This document shows, piece after piece, positions 15,001 through 18,000 of a stretch of DNA of 33,448 bases (the first letter of the stretch is position 1; every line of letters starts with the position of its first letter). Location: the IMG/VR virus record IMGVR_UViG_648028025_000008, one strand, 5' to 3'. This DNA comes from a virus (taxonomy: Duplodnaviria; Heunggongvirae; Uroviricota; Caudoviricetes). A program made the position numbers.

Positions 15001-18000
15001 CAAACAAAACCCGCCCACAAGCGGGTTTTGTTGTGCCACTTATCTCGGATAGACATGGTGAATGCGCTGGTGGAGGAGATAAGGGTGATTTTTGTATGCT
15101 TGCAACATTGATTTCGTAACGTTATTATCCTGCGCCCGGCCCTTTAGCTCAGTGGTGAGAGCGAGCGACTCATAATCGCCAGGTCGCTGGTTCAAATCCA
15201 GCAAGGGCCACCAACCGCCACTAGCCATCAGGAAAGAGCGTCAACCCTTTAAGTTGAGTGTGCGAGGTTCGAGTCCCCGGTGGTGGTCCATTATCGGTAT
15301 TCTGCGTTGTTAGCTCAGCAGGACAGAGCAATTGCCTTCTAAGCAATCGGTCACTGGTTCGACTCCAGTACAACGCGCTACACTTATTTTCCCGGCTCGC
15401 TTTTGCGGGCCTTTTTTGTATCTGCGCCACGCCCGGCGCATACCAACCACAGAGCCTTTCGGGGGGGGGGGGGAGCTTACGGAGTGGTCAGTGTGACTTT
15501 CTCTGTGGGCAGATCGCTCCCGGGCGTTGGCTCACCCACCCAAAGGAACGTCACGATGTTTGGTATTTTTGGTAAAAAAAGCCCGCAGAGCGGCAACGGA
15601 AATTAAAAAGTTTGAAAAACGCGATCTGGCACAGGTGGTGATTAACGCCGCCTACCTGGTGGCCTATGCAGATGGTGAATGTGAGGCTTCCTAGAAAGCG
15701 AAGATCGAACAGGTACTGCGTAATCAGCCTGCGCTGTACGCGTTTACGTCAGAAATTAATGCGATTAGCGCAACCATTATCGGTCAGCTGGATACGAACT
15801 TTAAAACTGGTCGTCGTGCGGCGTTACGTGAGATCGAGGATGTGAAACACGATACGCGTGAAGCGGAAGATGTGCTGGATGTGGCGGTGGCCATTGCGGA
15901 GGCAGACGGCGAAATTGAGCCGGAAGAGCGCAAGGTGCTGGAAGAGATTGCCGGTGTTCTGGGTCTTCGTCTGGAGAATTACCTGTGACGGTAAAACTGC
16001 GCCTGACTGTGGCTGCACTCCTGCTGTTTCTGGTGGTGATGGTGGATTTCACCAGCAGAATCATGTCGGTGCTGGCGGATGGGGTGCTGGTCTGCGGCAT
16101 TATGGTATTGCTGTGGCCGGTGATAAAAAGAAACAGCCTGCATAATGCTTGATTTTTTTGTTTGCTGTTTATTAAAAACACTTCTGCATGGTGAATCCCC
16201 CTGTGCGGTGGGGCAATCAGCAAGAAGGAATATGGGGTAATCGCGGATTCAGGTGCTGATACTGAATTCACCGGGAGGCACCCGGCACCATGCTTTGCCA
16301 CAAAAGTGTTATTTCTGTTTTTCTCAAACTATCATCGTTATCCCTTTATTTTCGGCTGCGCATGGCGCGGCCTTTTTTTTACGACCAGCCACTGGCAGAT
16401 GGTCATCCTGTGATTTGATTCCGCTTCCGGCTTTTTAACTCTGTTCCTCTACACGGGAGAAATTCGATGTCGATTAAACATTACGATGTTATCAGGGCGG
16501 CGTCGCCGTCAGACCTTGCGGAAAAGCTGACACACAAACTGAAAGAGGGCTGGCAGCCATACGGCGGACCGGTTGCCATTACGCCGTACACACTGATGCA
16601 GGCGGTGGCTATTGAAGGAGAGCCACAGGTCGGCCCTTCATCTGAGCCGGATTGGTACTACGTCATCGTACTGGCCGGGCAGTCCAATGCCATGGCTTAC
16701 GGTGAAGGGCTTCCGCTGCCGGATTCATACGATGCTCCGGATCCGCGCATTAAACAGCTGGCGCGCCGCAGTACAGTTACGCCGGGTGGGGCTGCCTGCA
16801 GATATAACGATATTATTCCGGCCGACCACTGCCTGCATGATGTGCAGGATATGAGTACGCTGAATCATCCGAAGGCAGACCTGAGCAAAGGGCAGTACGG
16901 CTGTGTCGGCCAGGGGTTACATATTGCCAAAAAACTGCTCCCGTATATCCCGAATAACGCGGGGATCCTGCTGGTACCATGCTGTCGTGGTGGTTCGGCA
17001 TTTACCCAGGGCGCGGAGGGGACATTCAGTGCGGACACGGGGGCCAGCCAGGATTCGGCGCGCTGGGGTGTGGGTAAACCGTTATATCAGGACCTGATTG
17101 CGCGCACCAAAGCTGCATTACAGAAGAACCCGAAAAATGTGTTGCTGGCGGTGTGCTGGATGCAGGGAGAGTTTGACATGAGCGCCGCCACCCACGCACA
17201 GCAACCTGCGCTGTTTACAGCCATGCTGACACAGTTTCGTGCTGACCTCTCCGTGTTTAACGCGCAGTGCCATGGTGGCAGTGCTGCAGATGTGCCGTGG
17301 ATTTGTGGTGACACGACGTATTACTGGAAAAATACCTACGGCACCCAGTACAACACCATTTACGGGGCGTACAAAAACAGGGAGAGTGAGGGCGTTTATT
17401 TTGTGCCCTTCATGACAGACGGTAACGGCGTCAATACCGCCACTAACGCGCCGGCAGAAGATCCGGATATTCCGGCATCAGGATATTACGGTGCGGCATC
17501 GAGAACGAATGGAAACCAGGTATCATCAAACCGCCCGACACATTTCAGTTCATGGGCGCGCAGGAGCATTATTCCGGATCGTATGGCAACCGCTATTCTG
17601 AACGCAGCCGGGCGCACCTCAGCCTTCATCAGTGGTAAGGCACCGGAAATCAAACCCTCGCCCGGCGGCAACACGCCATCGGGTCCGTCTGCAGATACGT
17701 CCGTTCGCACAATCTCCCTGCTGCCGGCAGCCGGAGAGGCTGCTGCGCAGGGCTGGAGCATTAAGGATGGCGGAATTCAGTTGTCAGATGGTGTATTTAA
17801 GATCACCAAGCAGAGCAATAAAACCTGGTCCCTGACGCATCCGGTGGATGACGCAATTACCCTGCTGACACAGGGCGGCAGACTGACCTGTAAGTTCCGC
17901 CTGTCAGGCGCACTGACCAACAATCAGTTCGGGCTGGGGATTTATCTGTATACGGATGCTCCCGTTCCTGATGGTGTGGCGATGACGGGTACCGGTAATC

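Follow-up and report, generated by a model that had tools for sequence, protein, structure and literature searches.

A tRNA-shaped element between ileZ and argO of a lambdoid prophage is probably a decayed member of the argN family

The question addressed here is whether a tRNA-shaped gene, which lies between two intact tRNA genes of a lambdoid prophage, still decodes or has become a pseudo-tRNA. The prophage is the stretch of 33,448 nucleotides (nt) from a virus of the Caudoviricetes (IMG/VR record IMGVR_UViG_648028025_000008), which was analysed as a whole and is called the window below. Its tRNA array and downstream genes match those of strain E2865, and three tRNA-shaped genes stand in a row at 15138-15378 on the plus strand, i.e., ileZ, the element in question (15215-15290) and argO. 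A preliminary description of the element, made from the sequence, had left it as either a pseudo-tRNA or an unusual decoder. The analysis favours the former, on the grounds of four lesions at functionally important sites (C33, U35 in place of C35, an A51·C63 mismatch and a deletion of T12), the rejection of the element by the Rfam tRNA model RF00005, and a series of related alleles that leads to it. The element is thus probably a pseudo-tRNA, a decayed copy of the argN family that would still be co-transcribed with ileZ and argO. Its main features are as follows.

15215..15290, plus strand: probable argN-family pseudo-tRNA, with a UUU 'Lys-like' anticodon, C33, A51·C63, T12 deleted, U73 and an encoded CCA
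15225..15226, plus strand: site of the T12 deletion, where the D-stem T12 is gone between C11 (15225) and C13 (15226)
15246..15252, plus strand: anticodon loop CCUUUAA, with C33 at 15247 and the anticodon UUU at 15248-15250

On the plus strand, the element reads CCGCCAC UA GCCAUCAGGAAAGAGC G UCAAC CCUUUAA GUUGA GUGUG CGAGG UUCGAGU CCCCG GUGGUGG U CCA. Direct reading of this sequence gave an acceptor stem with all seven positions paired, six by Watson-Crick pairs and one by G3·U70 (15217·15284), and an anticodon stem with all five pairs and a loop of 7 nt. The D stem has only two regular pairs, G10-C25 and C11-G24, and a third one, C13-G22, is possible with A23 bulged out. The T stem has four pairs and the A51·C63 mismatch (15265·15277), and the identical mismatch is present in the argN of phage F349, which is an annotated gene. 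The T loop, UUCGAGU, is canonical and fits UUCRANY. Also kept are U8, A14, G18G19, A20, the purine A37, 36-UAA-38 and the CCA end, and the discriminator is U73. The D stem of two base pairs and the CCTTTAA loop with C at position 33, both noted in the preliminary description, were therefore borne out. Its statement that the acceptor stem, anticodon stem and T arm are good holds for the first two and for the T loop, but not for the T stem with its mismatch.

The two-pair D stem is explained by the loss of a single base. In alignments, the element has GC-CA where phage Evi, E. coli SLK172 and the argN of Stx2 phages have GCTCA, and the D stem GCUC/GAGC is retained in Evi and SLK172. The preliminary description had placed the element at the argN position and proposed an alignment with argN. 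The placement proved right, as the element aligns base for base with the argN of Stx2 phages, with T12 missing from the element. The comparison was made with the ileZ-argN-argO cluster, which is named after phage 933W, in the phages F349 (Stx2a_F349, AP012530) and 1447 (Stx2a_1447, AP012536), whose argN lies between an ileZ and an argO identical to those of the window. Like argN, the element directly follows ileZ and precedes argO in a lambdoid late-region array, and it shares with argN the acceptor type CCGCCAY/RUGGYGG, the D arm, the T arm, U73 and CCA; it matches the F349 argN exactly from position 48, at the T arm, to the end of CCA. The alignment identifies the element as a homologue of argN and rules out a chance likeness. 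A tRNA-Lys gene captured from the host was also considered and was ruled out on homology, because the body of the element is argN-like; presumably it is also unlike E. coli lysT.

The differences from argN are concentrated in the middle of the molecule. The argN loop is CUUCGAA, whereas that of the element is CCUUUAA, with C33, U35 and U36, so that C35, the main identity base for arginyl-tRNA synthetase (ArgRS), is lost. In the anticodon stem the changes are compensated, with G:C at pair 30:40 of argN but A:U in the element, and with U·G or C-G at pair 27:43 of argN but U-A in the element. The variable loop differs as well, and T12 is deleted in the element only. ARAGORN calls the argN of Stx2 phages tRNA-Arg(UCG), but no tool gives tRNA-Arg for the element. 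With its anticodon stem UCAAC/GUUGA, the element is assigned to a second allele class of the argN family, which holds a clean tRNA-Arg(UCU), a tRNA-Lys(UUU) with U33, and a common form with the loop CCUUUAA. The window allele is the CCUUUAA form minus T12.

Three groups of relatives on this scaffold can be compared with the element. The closest are the prophage tRNA-Lys genes of Ile-Lys-Thr-Gly arrays, in E. coli SLK172 (BJJ90_RS11925) and phage PhiR47_1, and also that of phage Evi, which share with the element the anticodon arm with C33 and UUU, the A51·C63 mismatch and 97-98% identity. Copies of the SLK172/Evi type keep T12, a D stem of four base pairs, 37-44 bits with the Rfam tRNA model and a RefSeq annotation as tRNA-Lys, whereas the window copy has none of these. 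Those of the SLK172 type mostly precede Thr(UGU)-Gly(UCC), whereas the window copy precedes argO. The second group, tRNA-Arg(UCU), was found at four loci (L209, L239, L234 and L257), and the third, tRNA-Lys(UUU) with U33, at locus L014 and in E. coli ECOR29 (ACS228_RS14380). These two groups have UCAAC/GUUGA, the D arm, the T loop and the position after ileZ in common with the element, but they differ from it in having U33, a fully paired T stem and a D stem of four base pairs; in the L209, L239 and L014 alleles the acceptor stem is perfect too. The T stem of the Arg(UCU) alleles, with the loops UUUCUAA or CUUCUAA, is fully paired through A51-U63, and the cloverleaf is perfect in the UUUCUAA Arg(UCU) allele and the U33 Lys allele. 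Since such clean relatives exist on the same scaffold, the CCUUUAA form looks derived. It departs from them in three ways: by U33C, by C35U and by a 51:63 pair that no longer forms. As judged from these comparisons, the Arg(UCU) and U33 Lys alleles appear to be working genes, and the window copy a wrecked derivative of this type.

The family as a whole carries the mark of tRNA evolution. Among 55 distinct alleles, the cloverleaf was 96.2% paired, and five pairs had changed on both sides, which is far above slid controls. Its evolution was therefore that of a genuine tRNA, and the pattern of pairing indicates that structural constraint acted while the UCAAC and UCG classes diverged.

The detection tools disagreed on the element. 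ARAGORN, one of the programs suggested in the preliminary description, reported tRNA-Lys(ttt) at exactly 15215-15290 and accepted the cloverleaf. RF00005, in contrast, gave no match to the middle element at its gathering threshold of 29 bits, while both neighbours were accepted; the covariance model thus yielded no canonical cloverleaf that would speak against an atypical gene. In a permissive Rfam search with 321 nt, the best clan match of the element was tRNA-Sec with 15.7 bits (E = 1.7), and the score with the Rfam tRNA model is therefore below 15.7 bits. An identity as tRNA-Sec was rejected, since this score is noise, many positions are non-pairs and the long variable arm is absent. Along the allele series, the Rfam tRNA score fell stepwise. 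It was 43.0-55.9 bits for argN (55.9 for that of phage 1447), 53.2 bits for the U33 Lys allele, 44.4 (SLK172) and 37.0 (Evi) bits for the C33 alleles with an intact D stem, and less than 15.7 bits for the window copy; the T12 deletion accounts for the last step, from 37-44 to below 15.7 bits. The argO genes score 68-70 bits.

Loss of T12 changed the stability of the cloverleaf from -20.4 to about -15.3 kcal/mol, a cost of about 5 kcal/mol, and left the cloverleaf about 8 kcal/mol above the minimum-free-energy fold, which is not a cloverleaf. The fold of the element was no better than those of shuffled sequences (z = -1.36). Several working relatives likewise do not fold as a cloverleaf in silico, and folding energies alone are thus weak evidence on function; folding was used here solely for the relative cost of the deletion.

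ArgRS identity lies in C35, which is required, and A20, and LysRS identity of tRNA-Lys includes the discriminator A73. The element has A20 but U at position 35, and of the tRNA-Lys identity it has the UUU anticodon but not A73, in place of which stands U73. Ribosome binding of tRNA-Lys(UUU) relies strongly on the modified nucleosides t6A37 and mnm5s2U34. Among the substrate features for t6A37, 36-UAA-38 is present in the element, but position 33 is C and the U12:A23 pair is missing. Compared with a canonical elongator tRNA, the element lacks a D stem of three to four regular pairs and U33. The codons AAA and AAG are common, and several host tRNA-Lys genes serve them; the codons read by ileZ, argN and argO are rare. 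As reported for bacterial tRNAs, U33 is conserved and enforces the U-turn needed for ribosome binding (PMC13276492). E. coli TsaBCDE was unable to place t6A on a U33C mutant of the E. coli initiator tRNA (PMC8887486), and the bacterial t6A enzyme (TsaD) touches the D-stem pairs 10:25, 11:24 and 12:23 (PMC13276492). The known natural C33 tRNAs are the initiator tRNA-Met of multicellular eukaryotes (PMC8887486), with C33 in a loop of 7 nt like that of the element; however, the eukaryotic initiator binds the P site directly and gives no precedent for a bacterial elongator such as the element. All in all, useful decoding is unlikely for the C33 class, and most unlikely for the copy without T12.

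The second position of the array, directly after ileZ (slot 2), was surveyed using two anchors, the 3' end of ileZ, for which viral contigs were searched, and the UCAAC...GUUGA scaffold, for which metagenome contigs were searched as well. In the ARAGORN output, tRNA-Met(CAU) stands for ileZ (a lysidine-modified AUA reader), because RefSeq annotates this gene as tRNA-Ile. In the 129 ileZ-anchored arrays, ARAGORN reported in slot 2:

Arg(UCG): 67 arrays
no tRNA: 36 arrays (about 28%), as Met-Arg(UCU) in 30 and Met alone in 6
Lys(UUU): 24 arrays

The 168 scaffold hits had the following anticodon loops:

CCUUUAA (C33, UUU): 157 hits
CUUUUAU (canonical U33, Lys UUU): 3 hits
UCUUUAA (C33, UUU): 3 hits
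ACUUUAA (C33, UUU): 1 hit
UUUCUAA (Arg UCU): 2 hits
CUUCUAA (Arg UCU): 2 hits

Slot 2 decays repeatedly, and its wrecks are independent. In one, from O157 strains, the anticodon loop is removed by a deletion of 12 nt, another is a U8C/C4U/C11U haplotype that RefSeq does not call, and a third is a fusion of argN and argO. The commonest decayed form, found at about 25 viral loci, has the acceptor stem and D arm of argN, but its middle is exchanged for GACGACACGATAACAGGGUUGUUGGUG and its T loop is GCGGGU, and it is not called by ARAGORN. Many argN alleles that ARAGORN does call as Arg(UCG) carry lesions (alleles 4, 6, 28, 29, 34, 39, 42 and 49), including A6·A67 and A52·C62 mismatches, G instead of A at position 58 of the T loop and a UCA instead of a CCA end, and the decay of slot 2 is therefore not confined to the Lys-like class. 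Over 132 loci, the diversity per site was 0.027-0.041 for slot 2, 0.007 for ileZ and 0.011 for tRNA-Thr; slot 2 is thus 2.4-5.6 times as diverse as ileZ or tRNA-Thr, and far less diverse than the mosaic flanks. This level fits relaxed constraint and is suggestive of it, short of proof. Within the C33 class, stem changes that preserve a pair and those that break one were about even.

The window allele is widespread. The exact 76-nt sequence was present in 221 of 5,426 complete E. coli genomes and relatives with 95-99% identity in a further 535, so that the C33/UUU class occurs in about 750 of these genomes (roughly 14%). With the 321-nt surrounding region as the query, 11 phage records were at least 99% identical, and those listed were 100% identical. 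The U33 Lys allele was found in 13 complete E. coli genomes, with the RefSeq annotation tRNA-Lys. In a scan with one genome per bacterial species, the UUU-type anticodon arm was not found outside E. coli and Shigella flexneri. Next to argO, the T12 deletion was present at 19 loci and absent from 2, whereas next to Thr-Gly it was present at 2 loci (L117 and L190, both from IMG genome 2681813004) and absent from more than 127. In L117 and L190, the deletion is carried with a GGCGG acceptor strand, and these two loci suggest either that prophages of one genome exchanged it by gene conversion or that the deletion arose more than once.

From these findings, we infer a history of the element that covers its loss of function, the sequence of its mutations and its transcription. 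The ancestor would have been an argN-family Arg tRNA of the UCAAC/GUUGA sub-class, in which a change of C35 to U gave the UUU triplet. Further changes would have turned U33 into C and broken the 51-63 pair of the T stem. The resulting CCUUUAA form may then have spread together with the useful tRNA genes adjoining it at a distance of 1-13 nt, and the lineage of the window would have lost T12 afterwards, at the cost of its D stem. Transcription of the element together with ileZ and argO is probable, as is its excision by the tRNA processing enzymes, but charging or decoding at a useful level would not be expected, and it may serve as a spacer at most.

Several observations weigh against this reading. 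The acceptor and anticodon stems, the T loop, U8, A14, G18G19, A37 and the CCA end are all intact, and RNase P and the other processing enzymes should therefore accept the element. A third D-stem pair can be drawn, giving a stem of three base pairs with A23 bulged. The C33/UUU class is very common, at about 750 of the 5,426 genomes, and its loops (161 of the 168 hits) vary at position 32 only. Hitchhiking and recent common descent can explain both the spread and the constancy of the loop, and the deficit of loop variation is not significant (an estimate, P about 0.15). The U33 Lys allele, with its perfect cloverleaf in 13 genomes, implies that UUU in slot 2 may once have been selected. The T12 deletion itself occurs on two backgrounds, with argO at 19 loci and with Thr-Gly at 2 loci of one genome, and its frequency in Shiga-toxin-producing strains means that it is not purged.

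The most serious rival explanation, in our analysis an unlikely one, is that the element would be a working, atypical tRNA-Lys(UUU) that replaces host tRNA-Lys destroyed by a defence nuclease. The candidate nucleases are PrrC, which cuts 5' of the wobble base, beside position 33, AriB of the PARIS system, and P2 Old. Resistance to cleavage would come from C33 and the foreign anticodon stem, and the window copy would function with a D stem of three base pairs. The tRNA-Lys encoded by phage T5 is canonical, with U33 and complete stems, and has been shown to function. AriB and P2-OLD cleave tRNA-Lys(UUU) and tRNA-Thr(UGU) of E. coli, and phage tRNAs with the same anticodons rescue infection from them (PMC12409363; PMC12445682). 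T5 tRNA-Lys(UUU) escapes AriB (PMC11464382, PMC12409363), and as a phage-borne UUU tRNA it offers a functional analogy only: like the element, it has a 3' strand of the anticodon stem unlike the host sequence cut by AriB, but the two have no sequence relationship. A single U39A change abolishes AriB cleavage (PMC12409363), and the element has U36-A-A-G-U-U41 where the AriB-cut sequence is U36-A-A-U-C/A41, that is, G-U-U rather than U-C-A at positions 39-41.

Further points on this side come from the allele class. A canonical-looking Lys(UUU) allele exists on the same scaffold, and the intact C33 allele is called tRNA-Lys by both RefSeq and ARAGORN and usually adjoins tRNA-Thr(UGU), which is the second main target of both AriB and OLD. 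Phage 21, a relative of lambda, encodes a protective tRNA-Thr(UGU) (PMC12445682). As there is no codon-supply rationale for an extra tRNA-Lys, anti-defence is the only obvious selected role.

Other evidence runs against this rival. The window copy is without T12 and was rejected by the covariance model. On the one tRNA that was tested, C33 prevented the E. coli enzyme from forming t6A, U33 supports the U-turn, and C33 is likelier to be harmful than helpful. The discriminator is U73 instead of the A73 of tRNA-Lys, and the T stem has the A·C mismatch. The adjacent Thr(UGU) is of the host type, matching Salmonella chromosomal tRNA-Thr/Gly genes at 100%, and it retains both CNG motifs cut by OLD, so that the Thr-containing array does not resemble a collection of resistant variants; the window has no Thr partner at all. 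For the class as a whole, it is conceivable but unlikely that the C33/UUU alleles act as working prophage tRNA-Lys, or as decoys, shielded from PrrC, AriB or P2 Old, with slot 2 having switched from Arg to Lys under defence pressure. The intact parent allele is a likelier case for it than the window copy, which under it would be either a form that still works with a three-pair D stem or one that lost its function very recently. It can be tested whether lambdoid phages gain protection from PARIS or P2 Old through the intact C33 allele or the U33 Lys allele.

A second rival, which we consider improbable, takes the element as a tRNA-like RNA that does not decode but serves as a processing punctuation mark for ileZ and argO, as a decoy for nucleases or modification enzymes, or as a source of small RNA. 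Its best-kept parts, the acceptor stem, T arm and CCA, are those recognised by RNase P and by RNase Z/E-type processing, and it sits 1 nt from ileZ and 13 nt from argO within one predicted promoter-terminator unit. Many arrays, however, work without it, having the 12-nt internal deletion, a replaced middle or a skipped slot, and the adjacent tRNAs of other arrays are processed without such a spacer. The PARIS study considered that viral tRNAs, when over-expressed, might inhibit AriB by way of competition (PMC12409363), but nothing in the sequence of the element is specific to a decoy function. The last rival, an assembly or sequencing artefact with one base miscalled in a normal tRNA gene, has a negligible chance, because, although single-base deletions are the commonest type of sequencing error, the allele recurs in 221 complete genomes from many laboratories and in 11 phage records at a minimum of 99% identity, which excludes such an error, and is also present in independent viral contigs, and T12 lies outside any homopolymer run.

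Treatment of the element as a pseudo-tRNA bears on its annotation, since GenBank and RefSeq differ at the same sequence. In the GenBank records of PPompW prophages it is listed as tRNA-Lys by automatic annotation, whereas RefSeq, which places tRNA-Lys on the alleles with an intact D stem, had no gene at the exact 76-nt sequence in 15 of 15 cases among the matches listed; we favour annotation as a pseudo-tRNA. A literature search found no paper on the window allele. The element itself is most likely an ordinary gene remnant and probably no new decoder. Slot 2 of the ileZ-argN-argO array is of wider use: it changes fast, between Arg(UCG), Arg(UCU), Lys(UUU) and wrecks, beside a nearly invariant ileZ, and its set of alleles forms a natural series for anticodon change and gene death in phage tRNAs.

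The array in which the element lies is composed of the following features.

14247-14942: Q antiterminator gene, upstream of the tRNA array
15100..15128, plus strand: sigma-70-like promoter from a consensus scan, TTGCAA, 17-nt spacer, TATTAT, ending 9 nt before ileZ
15138..15213, plus strand: ileZ, anticodon CAU, intact (ARAGORN, tRNA-Met(CAU); Rfam tRNA, 72.5 bits; RefSeq, tRNA-Ile)
15304..15378, plus strand: argO, tRNA-Arg(UCU), intact (ARAGORN; Rfam tRNA, 68.1 bits)
15394..15417, plus strand: intrinsic-terminator-like hairpin GGCTCGCTTTTGCGGGCC followed by a T run, after argO, from a consensus scan

The ileZ gene is nearly invariant among related loci, and the element begins 1 nt past it and ends 13 nt ahead of argO. 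The site at 15100-15128 is likely the promoter of a three-gene tRNA operon, as suggested by its match to the consensus. Since the promoter and the terminator are consensus matches only, the co-transcription of ileZ, the element and argO is a prediction. Coding potential on either strand amounted to just short mechanical open reading frames (ORFs) across the tRNA genes. A second promoter-like site is located at 14926-14954 (TTGCAA, 17-nt spacer, TATATT), and a strong hairpin lies at 15003-15032, between the two TTGCAA sites. The arrangement at 14926-15128 is like that of a late promoter and its first terminator, behind which stands a separate promoter for the tRNA genes, and late transcripts from upstream may read through the tRNA operon as well.

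Several other features of the prophage and its relatives were observed. In SLK172 (locus L005, 2600-2753) and relatives, the Thr(UGU)/Gly(UCC) genes are 100% identical to pieces of the Salmonella chromosomal tRNA-Tyr/Thr/Gly cluster, and from this identity the Thr and Gly genes of the Ile-Lys-Thr-Gly arrays look captured from a host operon. A sok antitoxin RNA was detected at 11705-11854 on the plus strand (Rfam, 103.9 bits), where the matching PPompW records have a 'gef' maintenance protein, and the prophage therefore carries a hok/sok-type toxin-antitoxin locus. The DicF antisense RNA was detected at 4537-4588 on the minus strand (76.7 bits). Between the terminator of the tRNA operon and a TerB-like reading frame, there is a run of 13 G (15461-15473), and this homopolymer could be a slippage-prone switch. 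The TerB-like frame is split into three ORF pieces (15527-15988), and the identical gene of E2865 is a pseudogene with an internal stop in RefSeq. Downstream of the tRNA cluster, the small RNA STnc100 was found at 16157-16329 on the plus strand (100.8 bits), and the related locus L014 has four tandem copies of it (L014 2265-3380).

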